Position numbers and translations under genes: made by a program. From an uncultured Collinsella sp. (GTDB taxonomy: Bacteria; Actinomycetota; Coriobacteriia; Coriobacteriales; Coriobacteriaceae): a DNA stretch of 64,000 nucleotides. The notes beneath the pieces are model-generated. The model was given only the letters and a program-made list of their open reading frames with translations. It made no database searches and was not told where the DNA came from. The stretch covers positions 2,965 through 66,964 of the forward strand of contig UQHO01000003.1 in the NCBI GenBank assembly GCA_900540995.1. The letters are read 5' to 3'. Below are positions 26,423-55,614 of this stretch, piece after piece (the stretch's first letter is position 1; each line of letters opens with the position of its first letter).

Positions 26423-26431
26423 TGCCGCCTT

Positions 26432-28150: not shown

Positions 28151-28172
28151 AGGGGACACGGCATCTTTGCTG

Positions 28173-29540: not shown

Positions 29541-29548
29541 GTTGCTCC

Positions 29549-33103: not shown

Positions 33104-33177
33104 TGTTCATAACCTTTCAAACGAAGGAATCTACCTGTGAGGTGGCGGAGCGATACCTATTTACTCCGCCCCAACGA

Positions 33178-36798: not shown

Positions 36799-37551
36799 AT
36801 GGACAATTTCTCCGTGCGCAGTGAGCGCAACTTCCACAACCTGGCAGCCAAGCCAAAACGAATGCATCTTCTGGACAAGCCGAACGGCTATGCCTCGGCC
36901 ATGGTCAAGAGCAGTCTCCCCCACCAGATGCGCTTTACCGTGCAGGCGCTCGAGAAAGAGCTCTACACCGCCGGCGACCCGCACGTACTGCAGATCAAGC
37001 TGCTTGGAGACGACTCGCGCGAGCTGTCTAGCTGGAAGCTGTTTGCCGACGGCACGTGCGTCGCAAGCGGTTCGGGTGACTTTGCCCGCGAGTGCTTCTG
37101 CGAGGGAGCTGAGGTGTTTCTGGACCTGTGTCGCGACGCCGTCGAGACTGCCGAGCTGTGCCAGTGGAGCGAGAGGGAGTACGAGCTGTTGGGTGCCGCG
37201 CGCGGGATTGCGGGGGGGTGTAGGAACAGAAGCCTCATGACGGTGGCCTCAGCTGGAATGACGTATCGCTCGATAAATGATCTCAACAACGTAGCCGATG
37301 CGCCGCATTTCACCTCAAAGGCATTGAGCGATCAGGAGGCGTCCAGCATTTCTTTGATATCCCCAATTGATTGTTCCGAGAAAGTCTCTTCATGTCCTTA
37401 TAATCGCCCTTACGAGAAACGTGGACGAGACAGGCGTCCATATGCCGTCTCTAAACTAACGAGCCGTTCGCGGAAAGAACATCTGGCTAGCATGGGCCAA
37501 AGATATACTGGTATCGCTGCAACAATTATGGAAGATCGGCACCACCAATGA
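36799..37551 (+). CDS. Hypothetical protein, translationally coupled to the downstream surface protein
   Basis: Long ORF starting at an ATG with an AAAGGAG RBS. The 3' third has low GC and may not be coding. Its TGA overlaps the next ATG. Confidence 0.4.
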   Translation: MDNFSVRSERNFHNLAAKPKRMHLLDKPNGYASAMVKSSLPHQMRFTVQALEKELYTAGDPHVLQIKLLGDDSRELSSWKLFADGTCVASGSGDFARECFCEGAEVFLDLCRDAVETAELCQWSEREYELLGAARGIAGGCRNRSLMTVASAGMTYRSINDLNNVADAPHFTSKALSDQEASSISLISPIDCSEKVSSCPYNRPYEKRGRDRRPYAVSKLTSRSRKEHLASMGQRYTGIAATIMEDRHHQ

Positions 37552-39362: not shown

Positions 39363-39544
39363 CTCAAAGCGAACTCAACTGGGAAGGGCAGATGGATAGC
39401 CGTCCTTCTCTTATAATCAACCCAATCCGCTGAAATGCAATCAGTTAACGAGTTTCGCCAGACGCTCGGCCTCTACCCCGCTCTAGCAAGCCACCAGGCG
39501 ATGAGATAATGCCCACGACTATCAACGTAAGCAAGGAGCGCGCT

Positions 39545-40780: not shown

Positions 40781-40790
40781 CGATACGCGA

Positions 40791-40813
40791 CAGGCACGCG
40801 CCATGCAGACAGC
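40791..40813. repeat. 23-bp direct repeat (left copy) flanking the exonuclease gene
   Basis: caggcacgcgccatgcagacagc. Confidence 0.6.
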
Positions 40814-40821
40814 TAACGCCC

Positions 40822-41556
40822 CTACCTTCCCGCCGCCTTCAGCTTCAGCAGCAGGTCGCCCAGCTCGGGGCACTTGCTAGAGAGGCGTGTCTGGGCCCGC
40901 TCGCCCATCCCCCAACGTTGGCGGACTTCTTGGGCGCGCGGACTCACGTGATAGTCCCCGTCCATCACCTGCTTGAGCAGCTTGGCGGTCACGCGCGCAT
41001 CGGCTAGGGCGCTGTGGGCATGGCCCGTCGACTCGTCAAACTCGATGCCGAACCACGTTGCCGCGTCGCCCAACGAGACGCGCCCGTGGCTGCCAACGTC
41101 CATGATCGAGGTGTAAAACGCCTGCAGGTCGGCCCAGTCCGTAGGAAATGTGGAAAGGTCGATGTGCTTTGCCTGGCACTCGGTCAAAAGCTGCCGACGG
41201 TCCGCACCGCTCCAACAGACCACCTGGGCGGAGTAGCGACCGATCCAATCGCTGAGCCTTTTTATCACCATGTAGAGCAGATCGGCCATCGCGGTGTCCA
41301 CGGCCGATATCCCCGTGAGCTCGCGGACGGGATACGCAACGCCTTCGGTAAATTCCGTCTGCACAAACTGCGAGAACTCGCCCATAACGTTGCCGTGGTA
41401 ATCGAGCTTAACGGCGCCGACCTCGATAATCTCATTGCGCAGCCCACGGCGCTGGCGCTGCTTTGGCACCGGCGCAAACTCAAAGTCCAGCACAATCTGG
41501 CGCGCAAAGTTCGTCGTATCGATAGCCGAGATACACGGCGTCTTTTCAGCTGACAC
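40822..41556 (-). CDS. DEDDh-family 3'-5' exonuclease (DnaQ/epsilon-like domain protein)
   Basis: The VLDFEF, EIIEVGAVKL and HSALADA motifs match ExoI, ExoII and ExoIII. Confidence 0.7.
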   Translation of the reverse strand: MSAEKTPCISAIDTTNFARQIVLDFEFAPVPKQRQRRGLRNEIIEVGAVKLDYHGNVMGEFSQFVQTEFTEGVAYPVRELTGISAVDTAMADLLYMVIKRLSDWIGRYSAQVVCWSGADRRQLLTECQAKHIDLSTFPTDWADLQAFYTSIMDVGSHGRVSLGDAATWFGIEFDESTGHAHSALADARVTAKLLKQVMDGDYHVSPRAQEVRQRWGMGERAQTRLSSKCPELGDLLLKLKAAGR

Positions 41557-41663
41557 GGTTAGGGCCTTTCTCCGTTGCTTGCCGCTTGTTACATAAGCGG
41601 CTACATTGCCGTAAGGTTAGGCGCTCGTGCGGACATGAAATCGGAGCGCAATGCCACGCGCGC

Positions 41664-41686
41664 CAGGCACACGCCATGCAGACGGC
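41664..41686. repeat. 23-bp direct repeat (right copy) flanking the exonuclease gene
   Basis: caggcacacgccatgcagacggc, which matches the left copy at 21 of 23 positions. Confidence 0.6.
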
Positions 41687-42013
41687 CCCAAGAGAGTCGC
41701 CCGCTCTATTCAAATGCATGAAAAAGATTTAGGCCCGGTGACTTGAATCAGCGGTCATCCCGGGCCCATCAGAGCTCGTAGAGCTCTTGGTTGCTTTGGT
41801 CTCGCTCTTCACGGCGCTTATCGAACTTTCCGAGGCACTCAAGCAGCATTCGAAGCATAACAAGTCGCTGCCATTAAGGCACTGACCTCTTGACCAAGCA
41901 ACGGCGCTGCCCAGCTATCACCCTTGGGCTGCCGTCAACTTTATTCTATCCGCGAGCATCTGGTTTACCAAATGGATTTTCGGTAAAGGAAGCACGGCAC
42001 GCCCGCAAAACCA

Positions 42014-43309
42014 CTACGCCCCAAGTGCCGCCATGGGAATCACCGCCACGCCGTCGTCGCGTGTGTAGGCAATGCTCCCCTTTCCAACCACGACCGCCAA
42101 AAACGCCGGCGCGGCATTCTGGGCGGCAGGATTGGAGAGCACTTTCCTCTCCAGCGCCTTGAGATTTCTCGCTCCATCGTCTGCTTTCGCATCACTCAGC
42201 TTGACCTCGATGGCTCCCCAGCGCCCGTCGTGCTCAACGATCAGATCGACCTCAAGGCCCTTCTCATCTCGGAAATAATGGACACTGTTGTCGACACCGC
42301 CGTAGGTGGAAAGGAACACGCGCACGTCGCGCAGGACGAGATTCTCAAAGAGCATCCCCAGCGTTTGCATATCGCCAAGCAGCCGCTCAGGGGTAGCCCC
42401 CAGCAACGCCGCCGCAAGTGACGGGTCACAGAAGTAGCGCTTGGGGCGCACGCGAACGCGGGCCTTCGAGCGCATGGGCGGCTCCCATCCGCACAGGTCC
42501 TCGGTCAGCTTGAGCCTGTTGAAGAGGTCCAAGTACGCAGCGATGGTCCTCTCGTCGGGGCCCGCCTCACCGTACGAGGCGTCCTTTACGAGCGTCTTGT
42601 ACGTGACAGCCTGGCTCTCGTTCATGGCAAGAGCTCGCAAAAGGCCGTGTGCAAGCTCGGGCGACATGCCCTCGTCCAGCACGTTGACGTCGAGCACCGA
42701 GTGCACGTACTGGCTTGCCGTCTCTCGCGCAAGATCTTCCGAAAGCCCAAGATTTGCAGGCCAACCGCCCCTGCAGCACCAGCGGGCGACGTCATCCACC
42801 GTGCTCTCGCGACGCTGAGGGGCAAAATCCTCGCCCTTAAAGAGGCTTGCCAGTGACACGAGCGGCTCGCCGTCGCCCGACTCACACAGGGCCATGGGGC
42901 GCATTGACAGACGGGCGATCCTACCCGTGCCGGAATGACGAACATGGCTGCGCTCCTCGCTTTTGAGCGCGGTCGAGCCCGTGAGCAAAAGTGTCCCCCG
43001 TTCGTTGCCGCTCGCGTCCACGAAACGCCGGGCGGCATCCCAAACCTCGGGCACCTCCTGCCATTCATCGACCAGGTGTGGCGCATCGCCGATGAGCGCC
43101 AGGCTTGGGTCGACCTCTGCCGCCGCACGCTGCGCAGGCTCATCGAGCCTGGAGACGCTCGCCGAGCGAGAGAGCGCCGTCCAGGTCTTGCCGCACCATT
43201 TGGGGCCGTTGATCTCCACACAGCCAAACGCCCGCATAAGGGTGTCGAGGCGCTCCTCTATGAGCCGGGGCCTATATCCCTTTTGGGTCAATCTCTTTGG
43301 TGCATCCAT
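42014..43309 (-). CDS. AAA+ ATPase with C-terminal DUF4143-type domain
   Basis: Walker A GPKWCGKT. The length and layout are typical of the COG1373 family. Confidence 0.7.
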   Translation of the reverse strand: MDAPKRLTQKGYRPRLIEERLDTLMRAFGCVEINGPKWCGKTWTALSRSASVSRLDEPAQRAAAEVDPSLALIGDAPHLVDEWQEVPEVWDAARRFVDASGNERGTLLLTGSTALKSEERSHVRHSGTGRIARLSMRPMALCESGDGEPLVSLASLFKGEDFAPQRRESTVDDVARWCCRGGWPANLGLSEDLARETASQYVHSVLDVNVLDEGMSPELAHGLLRALAMNESQAVTYKTLVKDASYGEAGPDERTIAAYLDLFNRLKLTEDLCGWEPPMRSKARVRVRPKRYFCDPSLAAALLGATPERLLGDMQTLGMLFENLVLRDVRVFLSTYGGVDNSVHYFRDEKGLEVDLIVEHDGRWGAIEVKLSDAKADDGARNLKALERKVLSNPAAQNAAPAFLAVVVGKGSIAYTRDDGVAVIPMAALGA

Positions 43310-43343
43310 AGACGGCCGTCCCTCTCTATCACGCGATATGCGA

Positions 43344-43451
43344 AATTACGCCATTCTCAATGCTGATTTTACGCTACTTTCAATGTAGTTTTTACGCCAT
43401 GACAGATGTAGTTTTTACGCCATTTTCATTGAAGGTTTTACGCTTGGCATC
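43344..43451. repeat. Five tandem ~22-bp iteron-like repeats (consensus tAGTTTTTACGCCATnnTCAaTG)
   Basis: Unit starts are at about 43344, 43363, 43386, 43408 and 43431, in the AT-rich intergenic region between the two ATPase genes. Confidence 0.65.
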
Positions 43452-43494
43452 CTTAGCGCGACCCATTCCGAGCATCACATCAGAGCGTGCTTGG

Positions 43495-44886
43495 TTATCT
43501 CCGCTCGCACATCTCGGCAAACGAAATCAGCTTGGCATCTCCCCTGCTCGCCGCAGCTTCCTGACATCCTTGCGTAAAGCCTCGCTTCGAGAAGATCGCA
43601 TAGCTTTTGTGCTGCCGCCTAAAGAGCTCGCTTCGATGCACGAGCTTTTGCAGCACGTCTTCGCCCACCGGTTCACTGCGCCATTTGCATTCCGCAAACA
43701 GCGCAGTGCCCTCGCCATCGTCAACAATCAAGTCGATTTCTTCCTGCGTATGCGTGCGATTATCCGTCCCCCACCAGCGCCCAACGCTTGCCGGAACCAC
43801 ATCAAGCTGGCCCGCCCGCGCGAGTTCGTACACGTATTGTCTGCATATAAGCTCAAAGACCGTACCCATGTAATCCGATACGTGCGGCTCAATGCGCTCA
43901 TACGCCATCTCGGCCATATCGTTTTGAATCAGCCCGATGTTCTGCGGAACAAACTTGTACCAGAACCTAAACATCTGATCGCTCAGCAGATACACGGCTC
44001 GCTTATTGCTCGTCTCGTTTAGGGGCAGCTCGCGCTCGACAATCCCAAGCGACGCCAGCTTATCCACATAGCTCTTTACGTTGCTCGCAGGGATTCCCGT
44101 AGAGCTCGCAATCTCCGAGATCTTCGAGCGCCCCTGGGCAATTGCTTGCACGATCGCATCATATTGCTCGGGATTGCGGCACTCCTGCAATAGCAGGTTA
44201 CTCGGCTCCTCAAAGAGATAGCCCGTAGGAGTAAGAAAAAGACGTTTGATGTTGTCCTTGAGCGGTGCGGCAGGATCGACTTTCTCGATATATGCAGGAA
44301 TGCCACCCGTCATGCCATAGCAAACTGCAGCGTCTTCGCGACCCATGCTCTGCCACAGGCCGAGGGTCGTCATAAAATCGAGCGGCATGATCTTAAACTG
44401 GGCCGTACGCCTACCGTATAGCGGACTCTCGTAGCCCAACACCTGCTCTTCCATAAACGAAAGCGACGACCCGCACAGGATAAGCATAAGCTTGGTCTCT
44501 TTGTACAAGTGATCGATCTTGTCTTGCAGCAACGAGCTGATCTCGGGATTCGATTGGGCGAGATAAGGATACTCGTCGATCACGACAATCAAACGTTCCG
44601 TACGAGCCATGGTAGCCAATGCATCGAACGCCTCGTCAAAACTACGAAACGACACGCCAGCAACACCAACGGAGCCCGCAAGTATCGCCTGGCTAAAGCC
44701 ATGCAGGTTTGCCTCTGCATTGGTGCGACGAGCTTGAAAGTAAATAGCCTTCTTGCCTTGGATAAACTCTGTGATAAGACGCGTTTTGCCCACGCGACGG
44801 CGGCCGTAAATCACAGGCATCTCAAAGGAGCCCGTGCCATACAGTCGATTGAGCTCGGACATTTCCGCCGTTCTTCCGATAAACAT
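43495..44886 (-). CDS. ATP-binding protein (archaeal-type ATPase with DUF234)
   Basis: Walker A GRRRVGKT. The 463-aa architecture is typical of the PF01637 and DUF234 combination. Confidence 0.7.
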   Translation of the reverse strand: MFIGRTAEMSELNRLYGTGSFEMPVIYGRRRVGKTRLITEFIQGKKAIYFQARRTNAEANLHGFSQAILAGSVGVAGVSFRSFDEAFDALATMARTERLIVVIDEYPYLAQSNPEISSLLQDKIDHLYKETKLMLILCGSSLSFMEEQVLGYESPLYGRRTAQFKIMPLDFMTTLGLWQSMGREDAAVCYGMTGGIPAYIEKVDPAAPLKDNIKRLFLTPTGYLFEEPSNLLLQECRNPEQYDAIVQAIAQGRSKISEIASSTGIPASNVKSYVDKLASLGIVERELPLNETSNKRAVYLLSDQMFRFWYKFVPQNIGLIQNDMAEMAYERIEPHVSDYMGTVFELICRQYVYELARAGQLDVVPASVGRWWGTDNRTHTQEEIDLIVDDGEGTALFAECKWRSEPVGEDVLQKLVHRSELFRRQHKSYAIFSKRGFTQGCQEAAASRGDAKLISFAEMCERR

Positions 44887-44901
44887 AGGGCCATCCTTCC
44901 T

Positions 44902-44957
44902 TTACGTTATAGCTAGCTATATTATACTTTCCTATAATATAGCTAGCTATAACGTAA
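44902..44957. repeat. Perfect AT-rich palindrome (25-bp arms, 6-bp spacer)
   Basis: ttacgttatagctagctatattata-ctttcc-tataatatagctagctataacgtaa, just upstream of the DUF234 ATPase start. Confidence 0.8.
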
Positions 44958-45010
44958 TTCGACAAGCGGCGCACGCAAAAGGGTCGGTACACCACCGCAC
45001 GTGGACCGTT

Positions 45011-45129
45011 CCGGAAAATGTATCCCGTTCTGGAGCCAAAAACTGGGCCGTAGTTTCCGCCAAACATGCCATCCGGAAAGCGTGTCCCGTTCTGAGCGCC
45101 AAATCCGGGACGCAGTTTCCACTCCAAAC
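45011..45129. repeat. Two tandem ~58-bp direct repeats (~75% identity)
   Basis: ccggaaaatgtatcccgttctggagccaaaaactgggccgtagtttccgccaaac, then ccggaaagcgtgtcccgttctgagcgccaaatccgggacgcagtttccactccaaac. Confidence 0.55.
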
Positions 45130-45230
45130 AAAGGGCCCCGGCTCGCGATGGAGCCGGGGCCAAAGGCGCAGCGTATGTAGTTGATGTTGAGCGCGAACAG
45201 CTCGTCAGCAATGGCCGTCCGCGCCCTACC

Positions 45231-48008
45231 CTACCCGCGGTTGCGGACGCGGCTGTAGGGCGTATCCACCATGGGCAGATTTGGACGCAGCTTGCCGTCA
45301 AACGCGCGGTAGGCGTTCTGTACGGCGGGCGCCGTGGGGATCGTTGCGATCTCGCCGATGCCCTTGCCGCCGTATGCCACGGGCAGCAGCTCGTCCTTCT
45401 CCACGTAGATGGCGTGGATATCCGGAATCTCGGGCGCACGGAACAGCCCGAGCGTGCCGTACCTTGCCTGGGGCACGCAGTCCTTGAGCGGCCAGTCCTC
45501 GGTAAGCGCATAGCCCATACCCATGAGCACGCCGCCTTCGATCTGACCCTGGATGGAGATGGGATTGACCACCTTGCCGGAATCGTGCGCAGCATAGACC
45601 TCGCTCACGCGGCCGTCATCATCCAGAATGACCACATGCGTGGCAAAACCGTAGCAGATGTGGCTCTTGGGGTTGGGAACGTCGGCGCCCAGCTTGTCGG
45701 TCGGCTCCAGGTACACGTACCCAAACTCGCAGCCCTCGAGCGCCTTGATGGCGGCAGCGGGATCTTGAGGATGCATACCCTGGCCGGCGACGAGTTCCTG
45801 TGTGTGCAGCTGATAGGCGCGACCGTCGTCGTACTCGATCTTGACGCCATCACCATGGGCGCTCACAGGAGCATCGGGTGCATGCTTGCCGGCCTCGATG
45901 TCAAGCATGGCATCGCGCAGCAGGAAGGCGGCACCGCGCACGGCCTCGCCGGTCACGACCGTCTGACGCGAGCCAGACGTGGTGCCGGAGTCGGGAGCGT
46001 TCTCGGTAGAGCACTCGCCATTGGCGATGCAGCGAAGCGGCAGGCCGCATGCCTCGGCAACGTCCTGCAAAAAGACCGTGTTGCAACCCTGGCCGATGTC
46101 GGACGTGGCGGCATAGACCACGGCCACGCCGTCCTCGATGCGAATCTTGCAGCGGCCGGCATCGGGCAGGCCAACGCCCACGCCGGCGTTCTTCATGGCG
46201 CAGGCGATACCGGCGTGTCCGGGATGCGCATAGTAGGCATCCTTGACCTCGAGCAGCGTCTCCTTCAGCGCCGTGGAGCAGTCGGCAATCTGGCCGTTGG
46301 GCAAAACCTCGCCCGGCTCGATGGCGTTTCGGTAACGAATCTCCCACGGATCCAGGCCGACCTTCTCTGCCAGCAGGTCGATCAGGCTCTCGAGCGCAAA
46401 CTCGGACTGGCAAACGCCAAAGCCTCGGTACGCGCCGGCGGGCGGGTTGTTGGTGTAGTAACCAAAACCGCGAATGTCGGTGTTCTGGTACTTGTAGGGG
46501 CCGACGGCATGCGTGCAGGCGCGCTCGAGCACCGGGCCGCACAGCGACGCGTAGGCGCCGGTGTCAAAGTTGATCTCGCAGTCCAGACCGGTAAAGTTGC
46601 CCTCGGCGTCGCAGCCCAGCGTAAAGGTGCCGTCCATGGCGTGGCGCTTGGGATGGAACGCGAGCGACTCGGCACGCGTGAGCTTGCACTTCACAGGACG
46701 CTGGAGCTTATAGGCAGCAAGCGCGGCCAGGTGCTGGATCGAAACGTCCTCCTTGCCGCCAAAACCGCCGCCCACAAGCATGGTCTCGACAACCACACGC
46801 TCGGGCTCGTTGTCCCAGCCAAACATGTGGGCGCACTCTTTGCGCGTATCGTAGGCACCCTGGTCGGTCGACTGCACCTTGACGCCGTTCTTGTACGGGA
46901 AGGCGACGGCGCACTCGGGCTCCAAGAAGGCATGCTCGGTAAAGGGCGTGGTAAAGCGCTGCGTCACGGTGAACGCGCTCTCCGCTAGCGCCTTGGCGGC
47001 GTCGCCGCGCGTCACGTGACGGCTCTGGCACACGTTGTCCTTGAGTTCCACCGTGTTGCCAAAGGCAAAGAAACTGTCATGCAGGCGCGGGGCGTCGGCA
47101 GCCCTAGCTTCGACAATGTTGCGCACGGGCTCCAGCGGCTCGTAATCAATCTTTACGAGCTTCTTAGCCTTCTCGAGCGTCGCCTCGTCCTCGGCAACCA
47201 CCAGCACGATGGCGTCACCCACGCAGCGGGTGATATCGCCCTGGGCGATCATGACATCCCAGTCCTGGATAAGGTGGCCGACCTGGTTGACCGGCACGTC
47301 CTCGGCGCGCAGGATGCCCACCACACCGGGCAGGGCCTCGGCCTTGGAGGTATCAATGGAGAGCACGCGGGCGCGCGGATACTTGGAGCGCACGGCGCTA
47401 GCATAGGTCAGGCCCGGCTGATCGAGCTCGTCGATGTCGTCGGGATACTTGCCCTCGCCGAGCACCTTCTTGCGCACGTCGATGCGGAAGGCGCGCTTGC
47501 CCACACCGTAGTCGTCGCCGCGCTCCAGGTCCTCGTCGATCTGCTTTTCGCCGCGGAGCACCGCAGCTGCCAGCGAAATGCCCTCGATGATCTTCTTGTA
47601 GCCGGTGCAGCGGCAGACGTTACCGCGAATGGCGTACTTGATCTGCTCCTCGGTGGGCTCGGGGTCCTCGGCGATGAGCGCCGCGCCCGCCATGACCATG
47701 CCGGGGATGCAAAAACCGCACTGCACGGCGCCCACGGCGCCAAAGGCGTACACAAAGGCCTCGCGCACGTCCTCGGGCAGGCCCTCGACGGTCACGATAT
47801 TACGGCCGGCGGCAAGAGCGGTGGTCAGCACGCACGCCTTGACGGCCGCGCCGTCCACATGGATGGTGCAGGTACCGCAGGCGCCCTCGGAGCAGCCGTC
47901 CTTAGCGGAATGGATATGCAGGTCGTCGCGCAAGTAGCGGAGCAGCGGCTTGTTCTGAGTCGTCGTGCGCTCGACGCCGTTAACGGTAAAAGTGAATTCC
48001 TGTGCCAT
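45231..48008 (-). CDS. Fused [2Fe-2S]/molybdopterin-binding molybdenum hydroxylase (XdhD-like; putative selenium-dependent xanthine/purine hydroxylase)
   Basis: N-terminal ferredoxin motifs (CSEGACGTC, CGFCIPG, CRCTGY) fused to an aldehyde oxidase/xanthine dehydrogenase MoCo domain, 925 aa in all. Confidence 0.8.
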   Translation of the reverse strand: MAQEFTFTVNGVERTTTQNKPLLRYLRDDLHIHSAKDGCSEGACGTCTIHVDGAAVKACVLTTALAAGRNIVTVEGLPEDVREAFVYAFGAVGAVQCGFCIPGMVMAGAALIAEDPEPTEEQIKYAIRGNVCRCTGYKKIIEGISLAAAVLRGEKQIDEDLERGDDYGVGKRAFRIDVRKKVLGEGKYPDDIDELDQPGLTYASAVRSKYPRARVLSIDTSKAEALPGVVGILRAEDVPVNQVGHLIQDWDVMIAQGDITRCVGDAIVLVVAEDEATLEKAKKLVKIDYEPLEPVRNIVEARAADAPRLHDSFFAFGNTVELKDNVCQSRHVTRGDAAKALAESAFTVTQRFTTPFTEHAFLEPECAVAFPYKNGVKVQSTDQGAYDTRKECAHMFGWDNEPERVVVETMLVGGGFGGKEDVSIQHLAALAAYKLQRPVKCKLTRAESLAFHPKRHAMDGTFTLGCDAEGNFTGLDCEINFDTGAYASLCGPVLERACTHAVGPYKYQNTDIRGFGYYTNNPPAGAYRGFGVCQSEFALESLIDLLAEKVGLDPWEIRYRNAIEPGEVLPNGQIADCSTALKETLLEVKDAYYAHPGHAGIACAMKNAGVGVGLPDAGRCKIRIEDGVAVVYAATSDIGQGCNTVFLQDVAEACGLPLRCIANGECSTENAPDSGTTSGSRQTVVTGEAVRGAAFLLRDAMLDIEAGKHAPDAPVSAHGDGVKIEYDDGRAYQLHTQELVAGQGMHPQDPAAAIKALEGCEFGYVYLEPTDKLGADVPNPKSHICYGFATHVVILDDDGRVSEVYAAHDSGKVVNPISIQGQIEGGVLMGMGYALTEDWPLKDCVPQARYGTLGLFRAPEIPDIHAIYVEKDELLPVAYGGKGIGEIATIPTAPAVQNAYRAFDGKLRPNLPMVDTPYSRVRNRG

Positions 48009-48020
48009 GGTGATTCCCTT

Positions 48021-48500
48021 CTACACGCCGGCGGCGATGCCGGTGCGGTCGTGGATGGCGCCATGCGGGCAGACGACGGCGCACATGCCGCACGACAGGC
48101 AGTCCGCGCCGTCGATATGGGCGCAGTTGTCCTCGATGCGGATAGCGCTGGCAGGGCACTTTTTGGCGCACATGCCGCAACCGATGCAGCTCGTGTCGCA
48201 GATCTTGCGCGCAATGGCGCCCTTGTCGGTGTTGTTGCAGCGCACCAGGATGTTCTGGTAGCCGGGAACGAAGGCAATCACGCGCTGTGGACACGCCATG
48301 CCGCACAGGCCACAGCCCGTGCACTTAGAGCGATCCACGCGGGCGATGCCATCGACCAGCGCAATGGCACCGTGGGGGCAGGCCGTGACGCAGGCGCCAC
48401 AGCCAATGCAGCCTTCGCTGCAGCGGGCGTCGCCGCCTGCGGAGGCGCAACCGCTTCCGCAGGCAACGTAGGCCACGTTATGTTGAATGGATTTGGCCAT
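48021..48500 (-). CDS. 4Fe-4S ferredoxin-domain protein (YgfS-like)
   Basis: Multiple CxxCxxCxxxCP motifs in 159 aa. Confidence 0.75.
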   Translation of the reverse strand: MAKSIQHNVAYVACGSGCASAGGDARCSEGCIGCGACVTACPHGAIALVDGIARVDRSKCTGCGLCGMACPQRVIAFVPGYQNILVRCNNTDKGAIARKICDTSCIGCGMCAKKCPASAIRIEDNCAHIDGADCLSCGMCAVVCPHGAIHDRTGIAAGV

Positions 48501-48511
48501 AAGAGACTCGC

Positions 48512-51511
48512 CTATTTCTTAAGGAGATAAGGATAGCTGTCGCGCACGGCCTTGATGGTCAGGCGGACGGCCTCGGGCAGACCGGTGTTGACGGCATCGA
48601 CCGAGACGGTGCGGACCGTGCCGGCGACGCGGACTTTAAAGTGGTCCTCGTCCACAGCCAGGAAGCCCTCGTTCTCGGAGTTCTCCATGTCCTGCTCGCT
48701 CCAGAACAGGGTGAGCTTGTCCTTGTAGGGACGACCCTCCTGGTAGGGGCAGAATACGGCGCAGTTGCCGCACTCGTTGCACATGCCATCGACGTGGACG
48801 ACCTGATGTTTGGCCAGGCCCGGCACCTTAATTGCCACGTTGGCGCGGTTGGGGCACACGTCGCAGCAGACCTCGCACACCGAGCCGCAGCCCAGGCAGC
48901 GGGTCTTGGTGCAGTTGCGCTTGTCACGGCACAGCGACCCCTTGCGCTCGTAGCAGGTGTCCTCGCGGCCGGCCTGCTCGTTGCAGTCGACGTACTTGTT
49001 AAAGTCCACGCCGGCGATGGCACGGGCGACCTCGGCGGCGTCGGCGATAGCCTCGACCACGGTGGCCGGACCGCGACGGCAATCGCCTGCAGCCCAAACG
49101 CCCTCGACGCCGGTGGAGGTGGCGGCAAGGCGGCCGCGACGGTCGTGCTCGACGCCCGCGGCATCGTACAGGCTGGCATCGATGCCCTCGCCCACGGCGC
49201 AGATCACCGTGGTGGCGGAAAGCTCGACGGTCTCGCCCGTGGCGACGGGGCTGCGACGGCCGCTTGCATCCGGCTCGCCAAGCTCCATGACGTCGCAGGT
49301 CAGCACGGCGCCGTTAAGCGCCTTGGGGGCCAGCAGCTCGCAGAACTCAACGCCGTCGGCAAGAGCAAGATCGAGCTCTTCCTCGTCAGCGGGCATCTGC
49401 TTCTTGGTGCGGCGATACACCAGGCGCACGTTCTTCACGCCAGCAAGGCGCTTGGCCACGCGGGCCGCGTCCATGGCGGTGTTGCCGGCGCCAATGACCA
49501 CGACGTCCTCGCCCAGCTCGAGCTTCTCGCCCTTCTTGGCGGCCTCGAGGAACTCCAGCACGTCGAGCTCGGCACCCTCGCCCAAGCCCGCAGAGCCGGG
49601 CATCCAGGCACCAGTGGCCACGACTACGTCGGTAAAGCCCTGGGCCTTGAGCTCGTCAATGGACTCCACGCGGGCGTTGAGCTGCACCTTGGCGCCAAAG
49701 GCCAGACAGAGCTCGGCATCGTGGGAGATATCGTCGCTCGCGATACGGAACTCGGGGATCACGTGACGGACCACGCCGCCGAGAGAGTCGCGGGCCTCGA
49801 AGATAGTGACGGGCACGCCGGCGCGCGTCAGGAAGAACGCCGTCGCCAGACCGGCCGGGCCGCCGCCGATAACGGCAACGTTGCGCTCGGCGTCGTTGGC
49901 AATGGCCTGGGCGCGCAGCTTGGGCAGCACGGCGGTCATGGCCTCGCGGGCGGCCTTGAGCTTGCTGGCGCGGATCTGGGCGCCCTCGGGCTCGTAGAAC
50001 GCACGCTCGCAGGCACGGCCGCAGGGATGCGGGCAGATGGTACCGGTGATGAACGGCAGGGCGTTGCGCTCGATGATGATGTTGAGTGCGTCCTCGTAGC
50101 GGCCCTCGTCAACAGCCGCCAGATAGGCGGGAATATCCTGCTGGATGGGGCAGCTCGTGCGGCACGGCGTGGTAAAGCAGTCGGAAAGCGGGCTCTTGCC
50201 GGCGACCTTGCGGTCGGGCAGCGGGCGCAGCGGCTTCTTGTAGAGCGGGTTGGTGAGCGAGTCGGTCTGGATCGCAGTCACGGCCTCGAGAGAGACGCCC
50301 GCGAACGGCTTGCCATCCAGGTCGGTAAACTCGCCAGCCATCTGGCTAAAGCGCTCGTAGCCACCAGGCTTGAGTACGTCGGTCGCCAGGGTGACGGGCC
50401 AAATGCCGGCATCGTACAGGGCGCGGATGTTGTAGACCGTAGCACCGCCAGAGTAGCTAATGCGCAGCTTGCCATCGAACTGCTCGGTAATGCGACGGGC
50501 GGCCTCGATGGTCAGCGAGAACAGCGAACGGCCGGACATGTACATCTCGGTGGAGGGCAGCTCGTTCCTCGTCACGTCGACGGGGAACGTGTTGGTCAGC
50601 TTGACGCCAAACTCCAGGCCGCGCTCGGCACACAGGGCAATCAGACGCTCAAACATGGGCACAGCGTCGACCCACTGCAGATCCTCGCGGAAGTGCGTGT
50701 CATCGAAGACGATGTAGTCGAAGCCCAGCTCGTTGAGGCGCTGGCGAGCAAACTCATAGCCCAGCAGCGTGGGGTTGCACTTGATGTAGGTGTTGAGACC
50801 CTTCTCGGTAATCAGATAGGTCGCGATGCGCTCGATCTCCGCCGGCGGGCAGCCATGCAGCGTGGACTCGGTAATGGAGTTGGAGACGCGCGCCGGGATG
50901 GACTCGACAAACGCGGCATCGACATTCTCAAACTTGTCCAGGTTAGCGAGCGCCCACGTGCGGCACTCGTTCCAAACCTCGGAGCCGCTGGCGTCCTTCA
51001 TGCCCTCAATGTACGCATCGACCTTGGGGCTCTTGATGCCCTCGAGGTCATAACCCACGGACATGTTGAAGACAAAACCATCCGGGCTGCCCAGGCCGTA
51101 CTCGCGAGCGATCAGGTGGCAGGCAAACCATGCCTTCACGTACTCGGCAAAGGCCTGCGGAACCTCGAGCTCGGTCGACCACTCGCAGTTGTAGCACTCG
51201 TCCTGCGCCACGATGCAGGGCTTGTTCACACACTTGGAGAGCTCCTCGCCGTCCATAACCTGAACGGTCTTGAGCTCAAAGAAGCGGGAACCGGCCACGT
51301 AGGATGCCACGATGTTCTGGGCCAGCTGCGTATTGGGACCGGCGGCCGGGCCAAACGGAGTCTCGATGCGCTCGTCAAAAATGGGAAGCGCGCCCTCCTG
51401 GTTGGTCGTGACCATCTTGCGCACGCCAAAGACGGCGCCCTGAGTCTTGTGCTCCTCGATGATCCAGTTCATCAGCTGCGAAAACGGGATCGGCCTCATG
51501 ATGTCGCTCAT
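48512..51511 (-). CDS. YgfK-like oxidoreductase (putative selenate-reductase/hydroxylase electron-transfer subunit)
   Basis: About 999 aa, with a DPD-like TIM-barrel N-terminus, a GltD-like FAD/NAD(P) region (VAVIGGGPAGLATAFFL) and C-terminal Cys clusters. The start was set at MSDIMRPIPF, which has a GAGGAG RBS. Confidence 0.7.
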   Translation of the reverse strand: MSDIMRPIPFSQLMNWIIEEHKTQGAVFGVRKMVTTNQEGALPIFDERIETPFGPAAGPNTQLAQNIVASYVAGSRFFELKTVQVMDGEELSKCVNKPCIVAQDECYNCEWSTELEVPQAFAEYVKAWFACHLIAREYGLGSPDGFVFNMSVGYDLEGIKSPKVDAYIEGMKDASGSEVWNECRTWALANLDKFENVDAAFVESIPARVSNSITESTLHGCPPAEIERIATYLITEKGLNTYIKCNPTLLGYEFARQRLNELGFDYIVFDDTHFREDLQWVDAVPMFERLIALCAERGLEFGVKLTNTFPVDVTRNELPSTEMYMSGRSLFSLTIEAARRITEQFDGKLRISYSGGATVYNIRALYDAGIWPVTLATDVLKPGGYERFSQMAGEFTDLDGKPFAGVSLEAVTAIQTDSLTNPLYKKPLRPLPDRKVAGKSPLSDCFTTPCRTSCPIQQDIPAYLAAVDEGRYEDALNIIIERNALPFITGTICPHPCGRACERAFYEPEGAQIRASKLKAAREAMTAVLPKLRAQAIANDAERNVAVIGGGPAGLATAFFLTRAGVPVTIFEARDSLGGVVRHVIPEFRIASDDISHDAELCLAFGAKVQLNARVESIDELKAQGFTDVVVATGAWMPGSAGLGEGAELDVLEFLEAAKKGEKLELGEDVVVIGAGNTAMDAARVAKRLAGVKNVRLVYRRTKKQMPADEEELDLALADGVEFCELLAPKALNGAVLTCDVMELGEPDASGRRSPVATGETVELSATTVICAVGEGIDASLYDAAGVEHDRRGRLAATSTGVEGVWAAGDCRRGPATVVEAIADAAEVARAIAGVDFNKYVDCNEQAGREDTCYERKGSLCRDKRNCTKTRCLGCGSVCEVCCDVCPNRANVAIKVPGLAKHQVVHVDGMCNECGNCAVFCPYQEGRPYKDKLTLFWSEQDMENSENEGFLAVDEDHFKVRVAGTVRTVSVDAVNTGLPEAVRLTIKAVRDSYPYLLKK

Positions 51512-51659
51512 AATGAGCTCCTCTCTGTAACGCCCGGCGAGACCGCGCGACGGGCGCAAATACGGTGTAGCGCTAGCACAGCGCCGGCGACCCCGCGGAG
51601 GCCGCCTATACGCGCGTCGAACGCGGCGAAACATCCGACGCGCGTGAATCTACTTGTAA

Positions 51660-53015
51660 TTAGTAGGTGCGTTCGTTGAGCGTGCTCCAGAGCTTCTTGG
51701 ACTCAGCCATGGTCCACGCGTTGATCTTGTCCTCATCAATGCCAACGAACTCGCGATCCTTGTACAGGACGCGGCCGTTGATGATGGTGGTGCGGCAGTT
51801 TTTGCCCATCATGCCAAAGAGCATGTGGCCGTCGATGTTCTCCTCGCTCAGCGGCGTAAAGGGCTTGTAGTCCATGACGATGACGTCGGCGGCAGCGCCG
51901 GCCTCGAGCACACCGAGCTTGCGATCGAAGTACTTGCTGGCCATCTTGGCGTTGTTCTCGAACAGCATCGTCATTGCCTCGCACCAGCCCACGTTGGGCA
52001 TAGCGGCGTTGTGACGCTGAATGATCAGGAAGACCTTGAGGCTCTCGAGCATATCGTGGGTGTAGGCATCGGTGCCCATGCACACGGGGATGCCGCGGCG
52101 GAAGAACTCGAGCACGGGGGCGCAGCCTACGGCGTTGCCCATATTGGATTCTGGGTTGTTGACGAGCCAGGTGCCGGACTCCTTGACGATATCCATCTCG
52201 GCAGGCGTCACGTGGATGCAGTGGCCGAGCATGGTGTCGGGACCCAGCAGGTTGTGCTGCAGCAGGCGCTCGACGGGGCTGATACCACCGCGGTTGAGGC
52301 GGGAATCCCACACGTCGTTCATGCCCTCGCACACATGGATGTGGAAGCCGGTCAGGCCGTTGTTGGCCTCGGCCATCTTATCCATGGTCTCGTCCGAAAG
52401 TGTAAAGGTGGCATGTCCGCCAAACATGGCAGCGATCATGTGGTTGTCGTTGTCGCGACGCTCCTTGGCGGCCCACTGGGCAAATTCGGCGTTCTCGGCA
52501 ATGGCCTGGTCGCATTTTTCCTGGCCGCGGCGATCGGAGACCTCGTAGCACAGGCACGAACGCATGCCCAGCTCCTGAGCTGCATCCTTAATGGTAAAGA
52601 GGCTTCCCGGGATCTCGCAGAAGCTCGCGTGGTGGTCGAAGATCGTGGTGACACCATCGCGAATGGAGTCCAGAATCGTGGCATAGGCGCTTGCCTTGGT
52701 GCCGTCGAGTGTCAGATTGTCGTCGATCTTCCACCACTGCTGCTCAAGATTCTCCAGGAAGTTGGTGGGGTTGCAGCCCTTAATGGCAAGGCCGCGGGCC
52801 AGACCCGAGTAGATGTGGGTGTGGCAGTTGATGAGTCCGGGCATGATGAGGTTGCCCTGGGCATCGACGTACTCGGCATCCGGGTACTTGGCCTTGAGCT
52901 CGCACTCGGGACCTACTTCGACGATCGTATCTCCGTCAATGGCGACCGCACCGTTTGGAATGAACGGGGCCTGAGCATTGCGGGTAAAGACGGAACCGTT
53001 AGCGACCAGAAGCAT
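51660..53015 (-). CDS. ssnA: SsnA-like amidohydrolase (chlorohydrolase/deaminase family)
   Basis: GLINCHTHIYSG metal-binding motif in a protein of about 450 aa. The start was placed at the second ATG, which has an AAGGGAG RBS. Confidence 0.75.
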   Translation of the reverse strand: MLLVANGSVFTRNAQAPFIPNGAVAIDGDTIVEVGPECELKAKYPDAEYVDAQGNLIMPGLINCHTHIYSGLARGLAIKGCNPTNFLENLEQQWWKIDDNLTLDGTKASAYATILDSIRDGVTTIFDHHASFCEIPGSLFTIKDAAQELGMRSCLCYEVSDRRGQEKCDQAIAENAEFAQWAAKERRDNDNHMIAAMFGGHATFTLSDETMDKMAEANNGLTGFHIHVCEGMNDVWDSRLNRGGISPVERLLQHNLLGPDTMLGHCIHVTPAEMDIVKESGTWLVNNPESNMGNAVGCAPVLEFFRRGIPVCMGTDAYTHDMLESLKVFLIIQRHNAAMPNVGWCEAMTMLFENNAKMASKYFDRKLGVLEAGAAADVIVMDYKPFTPLSEENIDGHMLFGMMGKNCRTTIINGRVLYKDREFVGIDEDKINAWTMAESKKLWSTLNERTY

Positions 53016-53210
53016 AAATGCTCCCTTCAACATCAGGGGCGGGGTTTGACACCTCTGACATGGCGGAGTGCGAAGCGCCGGCCTACACCGGAAACGGGCC
53101 CTCTCCCGTCAACGCTTCACCAAAGGGACAAACCCTTTGAAGTGCGGCTTGGCACCGCATGACGTCGGCGGACGAGGCGATGCGCCCGCCGACGAATAGC
53201 ACCGAATTGG

Positions 53211-54605
53211 TTACTTCTTGCTCTCGGGCAAGACCAGATCCACGGCAGCGTCCTTGGCAGCATCGATGTGCTGAGCCACGACCGGCGTCTGCGGAAGGAT
53301 CAGGTTAAGGACAATGGCCATGATGGCGGTGGGGGTTACGGCATTGGAGCCGATGACGGTGGGCACCCAGGTGGGCATACCCTCACCGGCAAGGCAACCG
53401 CTGGCCATCCAGATACCCAGGCCAAAGACGACGGAGGTACCGACGATGGTGGTGGTGCGCTGCGTGAGGCCCTCGCGGGTGAACATGCGCACGCCGTTCA
53501 TGGTGATGGTGCCAAAGACGCCGACGGTCGCGCCGCCGATGACGGGCTGCGGGATAGCGGAAAGGACGGCAGAGAGCTGCGGGAACAGGCCGGCGATGGC
53601 AAAGACGGCCGCGATGATCACAAAGACCCACTTGTTGACGACCTTGTTGGAGCAGATGATGCCCACGTTCTGGCCAAGGGCGCTGGTGGGAAGACCGCCC
53701 AGCAGGCCGCCGACCATAGAGGTGAGGCCCTGGGACACGATAGCGCCGGAGAGCTCGCGCTCGGTGGGCATACGGTCGATGGAGCCCAGGCAGGCGGCAG
53801 AGACGTCGCCGATAACCTGGATGGCAACCATGGGGAACACGACGGCAAGGGTAATGCAGACCTCGGGATCAAACTCGAGCGCATAGGGCATGAGCTTGGG
53901 AAGGGCGAAGACCTGGGCGGTGGCGACGCTGGAGAAGTCGATCATGCCAAAGGGGATGGAGACGATCATACCAACGATCATGCCAAAGAACACGGATCCC
54001 AGCTTGAGCGTGCCCTTGCCAAAGTTGGCGAGCGCAAAGACCACGGCGAAGGTGATAAGAGCGACGCACCAGGCCTGCGGGGTGCCCCACAGCGGCGTAC
54101 CCATACCGCCGGCCATATACTTGACAGCCGTGGGATAGAGAGAGACGCCAATGGAGAAGATGACCGTACCGGTCACGACAGGCGGGAACAGCCACTTGAT
54201 CTTGCTGTAGGCCAGACCAAAGAGGACCGCGACGGCGCCGCCGACGATCTCGCCACCCAGCAGCGCACCAAAGCTAAAGCCCGAGGCACCCATGGCCTGC
54301 AGGGCCGGCAGAAACGCGAACGAAACGCCCATGACGATGGGCAGGCCGCCGCCGATGCGACGGAAGGGAGCGAAGGCCTGAAGGGCCGTGTCGATCGCCG
54401 AAAGAATGAGCGCGACCTGGATGATGTCGGTGCTCTGCTGGCTATTAAAGCCGTAGACGCCGGCCATGATGACCGCCGGGGTAATGATGCCGGCAAACGA
54501 TGCCAGTACGTGCTGAAGGGCACACGGGATCATTTCCTTAACGGGAGGCATACCTTCGCGAGTGAACAGGGCTTCAGTGCCGTTCGTAACCGTCTCCTGG
54601 GTCAT
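53211..54605 (-). CDS. NCS2 family nucleobase:cation symporter (xanthine/uric acid permease-like)
   Basis: Multi-TM protein with NCS2 hallmarks. Confidence 0.8.
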   Translation of the reverse strand: MTQETVTNGTEALFTREGMPPVKEMIPCALQHVLASFAGIITPAVIMAGVYGFNSQQSTDIIQVALILSAIDTALQAFAPFRRIGGGLPIVMGVSFAFLPALQAMGASGFSFGALLGGEIVGGAVAVLFGLAYSKIKWLFPPVVTGTVIFSIGVSLYPTAVKYMAGGMGTPLWGTPQAWCVALITFAVVFALANFGKGTLKLGSVFFGMIVGMIVSIPFGMIDFSSVATAQVFALPKLMPYALEFDPEVCITLAVVFPMVAIQVIGDVSAACLGSIDRMPTERELSGAIVSQGLTSMVGGLLGGLPTSALGQNVGIICSNKVVNKWVFVIIAAVFAIAGLFPQLSAVLSAIPQPVIGGATVGVFGTITMNGVRMFTREGLTQRTTTIVGTSVVFGLGIWMASGCLAGEGMPTWVPTVIGSNAVTPTAIMAIVLNLILPQTPVVAQHIDAAKDAAVDLVLPESKK

Positions 54606-54957
54606 TTGACCACCAATCCTCGAAGTAGTTGTTTTCGCATCTAACGCTCTATTGTGACGCAGTGCGGGGTTGAGGTTGTGCCTTCATTGCATATCGTATT
54701 AAAGATGATTCTCATTCTCAATAATAATTTTTTGTTATCAGACCATTCTTCAGCTGAAATAACGCATTTCCGCAGGTCAGGAAAGTGTCTGGTCAAAATA
54801 ACATCTAACTTTTCTTTTGGTCAACCGTTTACCGCTAAATTCCTACCGTTCGTCTGCATTACGCAATGTACCTGCGGATATACGAGATGGTGGGCAGCGT
54901 GTTACCATGAGAAAAAATTGTTATGAACATTTCCGTTTTCACCCAAAGGAGTTGCCC
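54606..54957. promoter_or_regulatory. AT-rich divergent promoter/operator region (permease and yheO-like regulator)
   Basis: About 350 bp with markedly low GC (about 35-40%) in a roughly 63% GC genome, with ataacgca-type motifs shared with the 34393-34669 region. Confidence 0.35.
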
Positions 54958-55614
54958 GTGAACGAGACCGTACGCCGCTTTTTGCCGATGGTCGATTTTC
55001 TGGAGCAGATACTCGGCAAAAACAGCGAAATCGTGCTGCACGATTTCTCGGATCCCGACCACGCCATCGTCGATATTCGCAACGGCATCGTGAGCGGCCG
55101 CAAGGTCGGCGGTCCCGCCACCGATCTGGCACTCAAGATCATGCACGACGCCAAGTATCGCGACCTGCCGTTTATTACGGGCTACGAGGGGCGCGGTGCC
55201 GGCGGCAAGACGTTGGAGTCGGCGACGTACTTTATCCGCGAGAATGACGAGATCGTCGGTATGCTCTGCGTCAACACCGACCTCTCGACCGTACGCTCCA
55301 TCAACGCCATGGCGCAGCAGCTCATGGCGTGCTTCGACGCGGCGCCGACGCGCACGGAGCCCGCCCCTATCGAGGTCGAAAGCCTTTCGGAGTCCACACA
55401 GGAGCTCATTGACCGCAGCATTGCCGAGTTGCTGAGCGCGCGCGGGCTGGATGTAGCGTCGCTTGGTCAGAGCGACCGCGTGGACGTCATTCGCCACCTC
55501 AACGGCAACGGGGTGTTCATGCTCAAGGGCGCCGTGGCCTGCGCCGCCACCGCGCTGGGCATCTCGGAGCCCAGCGTCTACCGCTACCTGCAAAAAGTTC
55601 GCAAGGAGGGCTAA
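54958..55614 (+). CDS. YheO-like PAS-domain/HTH transcriptional regulator (second copy)
   Basis: It aligns with the 34670-35323 protein. The GTG start has an AAGGAG RBS 6 nt upstream. Confidence 0.65.
   Translation: MNETVRRFLPMVDFLEQILGKNSEIVLHDFSDPDHAIVDIRNGIVSGRKVGGPATDLALKIMHDAKYRDLPFITGYEGRGAGGKTLESATYFIRENDEIVGMLCVNTDLSTVRSINAMAQQLMACFDAAPTRTEPAPIEVESLSESTQELIDRSIAELLSARGLDVASLGQSDRVDVIRHLNGNGVFMLKGAVACAATALGISEPSVYRYLQKVRKEG

Follow-up and report, generated by a model that had tools for sequence, protein, structure and literature searches.

The DNA described here is a stretch of 64,000 nucleotides, which we will call the window; its G+C content is about 61%. Our main subject is an operon of five genes in positions 45231-54605, which we consider, with a probability of about 0.8 and judging from its genes, to be the upper operon of the anaerobic ('reductive') uric-acid/2,8-dioxopurine pathway in Collinsella aerofaciens. 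A second half of the pathway lies in 25379-34392, and the DNA in between has been repeatedly refilled. The source organism is a Collinsella of the aerofaciens complex, since a scan with the hydroxylase of the operon as query, using one genome per species, gave 80 matches, all of them Collinsella loci with 98-100% identity in the hydroxylase. Rfam also detects an L31-Coriobacteria ribosomal-protein leader in 679-714 on the minus strand (35.1 bits, gathering score 33), which agrees with this assignment. Gene identities were established from hidden Markov model (HMM) scores of Pfam and NCBIfam against curated cut-offs, and identities to E. coli proteins by pairwise comparison.

All five genes of the operon are on the minus strand. 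The first one, in 53211-54605, codes for an NCS2 nucleobase permease of the xanthine/urate type (Xan_ur_permease, PF00860, 5e-65). It stays under the cut-off for TIGR03173 pbuX (340 bits, cut-off 414) and is 26-28% identical to E. coli UacT and XanQ. The SsnA amidohydrolase follows in 51660-53033 (NF005540 632 bits, cut-off 444; TIGR03314 553 bits), with 32% identity to E. coli SsnA. The next gene, in 48512-51511, codes for YgfK, the NADPH:2,8-dioxopurine oxidoreductase (DOPOR). It scores 1287 bits with TIGR03315 (cut-off 835) and is 43% identical to E. coli YgfK over the full length. Its open reading frame spans 48512-51634; we have placed the start at the ATG in 51511, with GAGAGGAG before it, because residue 1 of E. 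coli YgfK aligns there. A ferredoxin of 159 aa with four [4Fe-4S] motifs is found in 48021-48500 (four Fer4 stretches, four CxxCxxCxxxCP motifs). At a distance of 12 bp the operon ends with a selenium-dependent molybdenum hydroxylase of 925 aa, in 45231-48008, which shows Fer2_2, Ald_Xan_dh_C, MoCoBD_1 and MoCoBD_2 domains and belongs to TIGR03311. An earlier note on this DNA had proposed five co-directional genes, with a YgfK of about 999 aa. All of them are present, with HMM scores far beyond chance, and the start chosen for YgfK gives exactly 999 aa.

The genes of the operon are separated by 12-180 bp. A predicted intrinsic terminator closes it in 45134-45161 on the minus strand: it has an 11-bp stem with 10 G-C pairs, followed by CTTTGTTTGG. 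It is the top terminator match of the region and sits in DNA which is kept in all strains. Nothing credible was found, down to E = 1, in a search for riboswitches or leader RNAs within or ahead of the operon. The genes for YgfK and SsnA are consecutive with that of the molybdenum hydroxylase, and the three families all score above their cut-offs.

The hydroxylase had been described as XdhD-like. This is appropriate for its function and domain layout, not for its family. Its score of 1129 bits lies above the cut-off of TIGR03311 Se_dep_XDH (830), while that with TIGR03313, to which XdhD belongs, is 228.6 bits and stays below (cut-off 1101.9): it is not an XdhD ortholog. Its identity to E. coli XdhD is 26-27%, and in the alignment, at 26% identity, Glu606 of XdhD lies in an insertion which has no counterpart in the Collinsella protein. 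It has fused 2Fe-2S and Mo-binding domains and lacks a FAD domain; a homolog of the FAD subunit YgfM was not found within the 64-kb window. In C. sporogenes the DOPDH gene CLOSPO_02131 is annotated as 'selenium-dependent molybdenum hydroxylase 1', the product name of TIGR03311 (Liu et al. 2022). Because our protein passes TIGR03311 and fails TIGR03313, and CLOSPO_02131 carries the TIGR03311 name, it appears best filed with the clostridial DOPDH (XdhAC) type; the likeness is one of family and product name. It is also a neighbour of ygfK and ssnA. As for its selenium dependence, the Mo domains of the xanthine dehydrogenase family and TIGR03311 co-occur with the markers yqeB and yqeC. Among solved structures the closest by sequence is the FAD-less Desulfovibrio aldehyde oxidoreductase; no structure of a DOPDH was found.

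According to Liu et al., NAD(P)H does not serve as electron donor of the clostridial DOPDH, and they give the physiological donor as unknown. A ferredoxin has been suggested as donor where YgfM is absent (Li et al. 2025). The four-cluster ferredoxin encoded in the operon is a concrete candidate for the electron donor of the hydroxylase, since a ferredoxin gene separates ygfK from the gene of the hydroxylase in all the Coriobacteriales loci sampled.

The other half of the pathway genes, in 25379-34392, is on the minus strand with the exception of yqeC. Its genes were recognised with Pfam, and their proteins are 38-61% identical to those of E. coli. It contains ygeX (33178-34392, 50% identity), ygeY (31718-33103, 59%), ygeW (30314-31516, 61%), a mocA-like gene (29549-30163, Pfam), hyuA (28173-29540, 38%) and, on the plus strand, yqeC (27329-28063, PF19842, 1e-32). 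Thus the four lower-pathway genes hyuA, ygeW, ygeY and ygeX are all present in the same region, 28173-34392. YqeB is divided into two genes, with the C-terminal half first: the 264-aa product of 26432-27226 corresponds to residues 270-540 of E. coli YqeB (54% identity, no Pfam match), and the XdhC-like product of 25379-26422 to residues 22-274. This division is kept in all Collinsella loci, and also in C. tanakaei (L093) and L095. In some Collinsella strains (L008-L010:4680-5630) and in C. tanakaei, ygeW is followed by a carbamate kinase gene and then by the mocA-like gene; the corresponding interval of the window, 30164-30313, has no kinase gene. In five loci (L001, L003, L106, L109 and L111) the XdhC-like gene is separated from rplE by an additional NCS2 permease gene, which is not found in the window; in L111 this permease gene is broken in two.

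The chemistry of the pathway is known from steps reconstituted in published work (Liu et al.; Li et al. 2025). Urate is converted into 2,8-dioxopurine by a selenium-dependent molybdenum enzyme, for which clostridia have DOPDH (XdhAC) and E. coli has XdhD-YgfM. The ring is then reduced by YgfK (DOPOR), and SsnA and HyuA open the two rings (Liu et al.; Li et al. 2025), SsnA acting on the reduced 2,8-dioxopurine (Li et al. 2025). The ureido groups are removed by YgeW with carbamate kinase, plus YgeY, and YgeX yields pyruvate and ammonia (Liu et al.; Li et al. 2025). YgfK is specific for the reduction of 2,8-dioxopurine and does not require selenate (Liu et al.). In C. aerofaciens five cluster genes, ygfK and ssnA among them, are induced by urate (Liu et al.); knock-outs exist in C. 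sporogenes and E. coli only (Liu et al.; Li et al. 2025). Both halves found in the window match this gene set, and for this reason we assign 45231-54605 to the upper pathway and 25379-34392 to the lower pathway and the maturation of the cofactor.

Each half has a regulator of the YheO type, as the earlier note had seen. YheO-1, in 34670-35323 on the plus strand, is divergent from ygeX and contains PF08348 (PAS_6, 3.5e-37) and PF13309 (HTH_22, 3.6e-15). YheO-2, in 54958-55614 on the plus strand, has a GTG start, 218 aa and the same two domains (PF08348 1.8e-34, PF13309 7.7e-18). The two proteins are 30-32% identical. Orthologs of YheO-1 (55-63%) adjoin the upper operon in Atopobiaceae, whereas in Collinsella this type is found at the lower operon. 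Orthologs of the YheO-2 type are found in L096 (57%, in the same place) and in the Atopobiaceae locus L101 (39-42%), as the tandem second gene at the head of the upper operon. Since Atopobiaceae have orthologs of both, according to a tree and to pairwise identities, the paralogs are judged to be older than the split between Collinsella and Atopobiaceae and were not born with the separation of the halves. The phylogeny which the earlier note had suggested as a check thus gives no origin of the regulators together with the split; at about 30% identity they are paralogs of long standing, and Atopobiaceae have the two of them as well.

The same note had stated that the YheO family is not associated with the E. 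coli locus. It is indeed absent there, but in Lacrimispora saccharolytica the gene of a 'YheO domain protein' lies between its neighbours ygeX and ssnA, and all three are induced by urate (supplementary RNA-seq table of Liu et al. 2022). A link of YheO to purine catabolism was not found in the literature searchable, and no solved structure for YheO is detectable by sequence.

The divergent region between ygeX and YheO-1 has two palindromes AACAAA-N3-TTTGTT in 34485-34550, which start in 34485 and 34536 and are 51 bp apart. A motif scan with at most one mismatch finds only these two sites in the 64 kb. When two mismatches are allowed and the divergent loci are added to the window (261 kb), there are 16 matches: the 4.0 kb of intergenic DNA adjacent to YheO genes contain 14 and the other 257 kb contain 2, an enrichment of about 450-fold. 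These two are both found ahead of purine genes, one just upstream of the ABC transporter of Olsenella uli, the other just upstream of what is probably the true start of ygeX in an Atopobiaceae locus. The palindrome is a phylogenetic footprint consistent with an operator of YheO-1, for which it is a candidate only. A spacing of four nucleotides, AACAAA-N4-TTTGTT, is uninformative (2 matches, 0.68 expected); N3 is the correct one.

The control region of the upper operon, between the divergent permease and YheO-2 genes (54606-54957), has promoter-like sites on the minus strand in 54824-54795 and 54721-54693. It shares the 20-mer TCAATAATAATTTTTTGTTA with L096. A perfect CGGTAAACGGT is found in its intergenic sequence, in 54824-54834, and similar strings are present in the YheO intergenic regions of relatives. 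We do not propose CGGTAAACGGT as an operator: there are 6 matches with at most one mismatch (0.7 expected), but five of them are inside genes, outside control regions.

We now consider the DNA between the two halves. From the stop of YheO-1 to the stop of the hydroxylase there are 9,907 bp, with no purine gene. The first gene, in 35447-36433 (plus strand), lies downstream of YheO-1 and codes for a Pro/Ala-rich protein with a C-terminal transmembrane helix and no family match in Pfam or PHROGs. It is present in 18/18 Collinsella loci which span both halves, with 55-95% identity: it is core to the C. aerofaciens complex. It is absent from L093, L095 and L096. A plus-strand cassette follows in 36700-40780, with an S-adenosylmethionine (SAM, S-box) riboswitch in 36700-36790 (RF00162 45.4 bits, gathering score 44.4), two genes without family (36799-37551 and 39509-40780) and a surface protein between them. 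The product of the 36799 gene has 250 aa here and about 140 aa in other strains. Its ribosome-binding site GAAAGGAG overlaps the 3' strand of the P1 stem of the SAM aptamer, which suggests translational control of this gene. To judge from its translation, the surface protein (37548-39362, 604 aa) has a signal peptide and, at the C-terminal end, LAATG with a hydrophobic tail behind it; this ending is typical of class E sortase substrates. Within the protein a unit of about 130 aa is repeated three or four times. It is found in some strains only, with 69-99% identity. Pfam, PADLOC and PHROGs gave no family for the plus-strand cargo proteins, the gene in 39509-40780 among them, nor for the Pro-rich protein.

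The rest of the cargo is on the minus strand. It contains a DEDDh (RNase T-like) exonuclease in 40822-41556 (PF00929, PADLOC DEDDh, phrog_192) and two ATPases which are candidates for defence: AAA_14/DUF4143 in 42014-43309 (Pfam; PDC-S01, PADLOC PDLC04790, 9.8e-63) and the winged-helix ATPase_2/DUF234 in 43495-44886 (Pfam; PDC-S27, PADLOC PDLC04984, 3.7e-62; G+C 0.537). Just upstream of the start of the latter, in 44908-44952, there is an AT-rich, near-perfect inverted repeat of 21 nt (GTTATAGCTAGCTATATTATA ... TATAATATAGCTAGCTATAAC), which may be an operator for this ATPase. The cargo has a G+C content of 0.589, compared with 0.634-0.636 in the two operons. A blastn comparison of L016, the locus with the shortest gap, against the window shows that 8.1 kb (36910-45011) are absent from it. 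At the edge of the variable region, in 45011-45122 on the plus strand, are two copies of a hairpin-forming repeat with a period of 62 bp (2 matches, 0.02 expected).

The gap was surveyed in 90 loci, 10 contigs which encode an identical YheO-1 and the 80 hydroxylase loci, with flanks sampled to 10 kb. In the 18 spanning Collinsella loci it measures 2,116-9,357 bp. Another 21 loci run 10 kb past the hydroxylase without reaching YheO-1, and many contigs end less than 2 kb from the hydroxylase. The cargo of the 10 contigs with identical YheO-1 is made up of type I restriction-modification, GmrSD, EcoRII with Dcm methylase, AbiEi, an integrase and transposases of the ISL3, IS21 and IS110 types. The flanks are 92-94% identical (blastn) and the neighbouring ferredoxin-hydroxylase DNA 95-99%. 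Homology between strains breaks in 45000-45129, just past the terminator, in 65/79 loci. Cargo modules are present or absent independently of each other. L016 retains the riboswitch and about 37 codons of the gene downstream of it, then repeat units, and one intact gene besides. Since one gene and a truncated riboswitch-controlled gene remain, L016 is a deletion scar and does not show the site in an untouched, empty state. Fourteen loci have the same junction type as the window, and they lie dispersed across a neighbour-joining tree built from the ferredoxin and hydroxylase DNA, a tree without support values in which recombination is likely. As L016 is not an empty site and the junction types are scattered, the site evolves by repeated gain, loss and exchange: the gap is a repeatedly refilled site, not a single insertion.

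Arrays of the 62-bp repeat are also found in L005, L013, L057, L061, L087 and other loci, as 2-5 units, direct or inverted, which flank cassettes of a single gene: either the DUF234 ATPase or a 332-aa protein without family. There are 230 distinct variants of the unit. Breakpoints of homology between strains cluster at the repeats, and the arrays border cassettes on the hydroxylase side only. The repeats could be REP-like elements or recombination substrates. Two proteins of about 335-345 aa without a Pfam family, L061:13517-14515 (minus strand) and the Atopobiaceae L099:8754-9788 (minus strand, divergent from ygeX), have N-termini (…LLD/NEAE…G.C…) which look alike by eye. A protein of this kind is found again in Collinsella strains, downstream of the hydroxylase, in a cassette flanked by repeats.

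Beyond C. aerofaciens the hydroxylase scan had given only near-identical Collinsella, and distant synteny was taken from 12 look-ups of exact proteins. In L096, a Collinsella with a hydroxylase 83% identical, YheO-2 faces permease-ssnA-ygfK-ferredoxin-hydroxylase, followed by 5.8 kb of cargo (an HGD-D family protein, a BcrAD/BadFG-type ATPase and an ABC transporter), YheO-1 and the divergent ygeX-ygeY-ygeW. In Atopobiaceae, O. uli included, overlapping loci show on the same strand two YheO genes facing permease-ssnA-ygfK-ferredoxin-hydroxylase, then a filler of about 13 kb, and ygeX-ygeY-ygeW-carbamate kinase-mocA-hyuA. The filler contains a Bmp-type purine ABC transporter, a classical xdhABC and three small genes. 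In E. coli K-12 the order is ygeV, divided from ygeW-ygeX-ygeY-hyuA-yqeA, then yqeB-yqeC and mocA-ygfK-ssnA-ygfM-xdhD-xanQ, all contiguous, as the earlier note had stated. Since order and strand are kept in L096 and Atopobiaceae, and the halves are adjacent in Lacrimispora and E. coli, we consider that their linkage and collinearity are old.

The operon in 45231-54605 may work as follows. A promoter in the divergent region at 54.6-54.96 kb would drive permease-ssnA-ygfK-ferredoxin-hydroxylase, and the transcript would end at the hairpin in 45134-45161. The permease would bring in urate or related purines. The FAD-less Se/Mo hydroxylase would strip the 6-oxo group from urate to give 2,8-dioxopurine, with electrons probably supplied by the four-cluster ferredoxin; YgfK would then reduce the ring with NADPH and SsnA would open it. 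The lower operon (25.4-34.4 kb) would take the hydantoin intermediate to pyruvate and ammonia through HyuA, YgeW, YgeY and YgeX, while YqeB, YqeC and MocA would act as helpers for the selenium cofactor. Each operon would answer to the YheO-type PAS/HTH regulator which it faces, and YheO-1 probably binds the AACAAA-N3-TTTGTT palindromes. The spacer between the terminator of the upper operon and YheO-1 would be a long-standing flexible site, with cargo gained, lost and swapped between strains; the direction of single events is what we infer from the comparison.

Several observations weigh against this reading of the locus. The enzyme activities and the induction by urate in C. aerofaciens come from the literature. 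The promoter and terminator calls are consensus matches only. The gene selD is not evident in the window, where no search aimed at it was made. There is no match in the 64-kb window to the carbamate kinase YqeA of E. coli or to the Collinsella kinase of L008. This absence fits the report that in ATCC 25986 the kinase is found elsewhere on the chromosome (Liu et al. 2025); it is inside the cluster in 33/39 strains (Liu et al.). The kinase is a frequent member of the cluster, not a strictly defining one. Ahead of the upper operon of the window the palindrome is weak or absent, with 3 mismatches. Remnants of a transposase, an integrase, GmrSD or AbiEi were looked for in the cargo of the window, and direct repeats on its flanks, and none were found. 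Finally, the upper operon is missing from the 10 kb beyond YheO-1 both in C. tanakaei (L093) and in L095, so that linkage is not universal in the genus.

It might then be supposed that the halves were never one locus in this lineage: two self-contained operons would have become close secondarily in some Collinsella, with ordinary inter-operon DNA in between. The halves have indeed a regulator and a control region each, the upper one also ends with a terminator, and unrelated genes occupy the 10 kb beyond YheO-1 in L093 and L095. SsnA is always beside the upstream genes, and beside the downstream ones only 'in many organisms' (Li et al. 2025). However the order, upper and then lower, and the strand are kept in both Coriobacteriaceae and Atopobiaceae, the filler of the latter consists of purine genes, operator-like palindromes are found ahead of all three Atopobiaceae purine units, and in other phyla the clusters are contiguous. 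We consider separate loci unlikely.

The earlier note had instead proposed a secondary insertion of about 10 kb (35.35-45.2 kb) into an ancestral single locus, after which each half would have gained a YheO regulator. Part of this stands: the DNA in question is secondary and variable between strains, it is unrelated to purine metabolism and poorer in G+C, and the linkage is old. The E. coli cluster is contiguous, and ygeX, yheO and ssnA are adjacent in Lacrimispora (Liu et al. 2022). What does not stand is the single event. Only about 8.1 kb are missing from the shortest relative, whose gap is a scar of deletion, and the first gene of the gap is core. The modules come and go independently and the junction type is scattered over the tree of the flanking genes; both YheO paralogs predate the split between Collinsella and Atopobiaceae. 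The gene order also differs: it is lower, cofactor, upper in E. coli, and upper, lower, cofactor here. The note had looked for loci in which positions 34393 and 45230 are adjacent. Such an empty site, with the halves abutting, was not found in the Coriobacteriales sampled, which include the 18 spanning Collinsella loci, L096 and the Atopobiaceae loci (10 kb flanks). It had also named as fatal to its idea the finding of the halves at unrelated loci and never contiguous: they never abut in Coriobacteriales, yet they are collinear in L096 and Atopobiaceae, and adjacent in Lacrimispora and E. coli. A single discrete insertion appears quite unlikely; a flexible site between two long-linked operons remains our reading.

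The older annotation, in which a xanthine dehydrogenase and a 'selenate reductase' YgfK act on xanthine/hypoxanthine or selenate and not on urate, survives in the NCBIfam names (TIGR03311 'selenium-dependent xanthine dehydrogenase', TIGR03315 'putative selenate reductase subunit YgfK') and is very improbable: YgfK works without selenate and is specific for 2,8-dioxopurine, the clostridial enzyme with the TIGR03311 product name turns urate into 2,8-dioxopurine, ygfK and ssnA are induced by urate in C. aerofaciens, and Atopobiaceae have a separate classical xdhABC beside this enzyme, which argues for distinct roles of the two.

For the control of the urate pathway we offer a linked proposal, which is tentative and less likely than not. 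The two YheO paralogs would be the regulators, so far missing, which sense ligands of the anaerobic urate pathway in Gram-positive gut bacteria, and AACAAA-N3-TTTGTT would be the operator of YheO-1; regulator and operator would have moved from the head of the upper operon, as in Atopobiaceae, to the head of the lower operon, as in Collinsella; the ferredoxin would be the reductant of DOPDH. If true, this redeployment would give Collinsella a circuit with two sensors, one of the substrate for the upper half and one of an intermediate for the lower half.

The whole purine locus is itself found within a cluster of ribosomal-protein genes, which accounts for the word 'nested' in the title of the earlier note. 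The genes rplX and rplE are usually neighbours in the spc operon. Here rplX (L24, 61791-62096) and rplE (L5, 24510-25067) have 36.7 kb between them (25.4-61.8 kb), purine genes included. In the context 15841-64000 the order is S3-L16-L29-S17-L14-L24, the 36.7 kb, and L5-S8-L6-L18-S5-L15-SecY-Adk-Map...S4-RpoA. The separation of L24 and L5 is present in 20/20 long Collinsella contigs, half of which encode an identical L5 and the other half an identical L24. In three other assemblies the distance is 40.4, 43.5 and 51.4 kb. A promoter-like site in 25233-25205 (minus strand) could restart the L5 block. There is a second interruption of the ribosomal cluster (L113:1-2058, also in L112-L121), where genes for cation efflux and a histidine phosphatase are found between the S10 gene and L3.

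Gut bacteria dispose of about one third of human urate, and the cluster is being engineered into probiotics against gout. The new details given here are modest: a layout in two operons with a variable island, a pair of YheO regulators with a candidate operator, and a ferredoxin in the operon. The pathway can persist where a strain-variable island parts its two operons, and methods which call clusters by gene proximity should allow for this. The co-encoded ferredoxin is a concrete candidate for the electron donor of the first enzyme, and the YheO proteins are candidate native regulators in a common gut actinobacterium.

The genes of the locus and what they do have been published already, and so has the organism. 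In the urate cluster of gut anaerobes (C. sporogenes, L. saccharolytica and C. aerofaciens; Liu et al. 2022 preprint/Cell 2023; 2025 preprint) the families are the same: a pbuX-type permease, DOPDH, YgfK, SsnA, HyuA, YgeW, YgeY, YgeX, YqeB, YqeC and YgfJ. The kinase is outside the cluster here, as in ATCC 25986. The difference is that here we find two operons, with 2 to >10 kb of strain-specific cargo in between. The ferredoxin gene lies here between ygfK and the hydroxylase gene, whereas none is among the listed C. sporogenes cluster genes CLOSPO_02121-02131. Two YheO regulators are found here, while the word 'regulator' is absent from the main text of Liu et al. 2022 and 2025.

With the ygeV...xdhD locus of E. 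coli (Li et al. 2025) the overall chemistry is shared, and YqeB and YqeC are present in both. The differences are several: the molybdenum enzyme belongs to TIGR03311 and not to TIGR03313, a ferredoxin gene is found instead of YgfM, the regulators are of the YheO type and the window has no sigma-54 activator YgeV, the gene order is another one, and YqeB is encoded by two genes in swapped order. In comparison with regulators of the YheO/DauR type, both proteins are full-length PAS_6 + HTH_22 and divergent from a catabolic operon. The characterised members have no link to purine catabolism in the literature searchable, and the operator given here is computational.

The region between the operons resembles flexible and defence islands: it has fixed flanks, strain-specific cargo (restriction-modification, GmrSD, Abi, candidate defence ATPases, insertion sequences, integrase), lower G+C and breaks in many assemblies. 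It differs from the typical ones in that the cargo of the window has no mobility gene, in the arrays of 62-bp hairpin repeats at its border and in its position, inside a catabolic supercluster and just downstream of the terminator of an operon.

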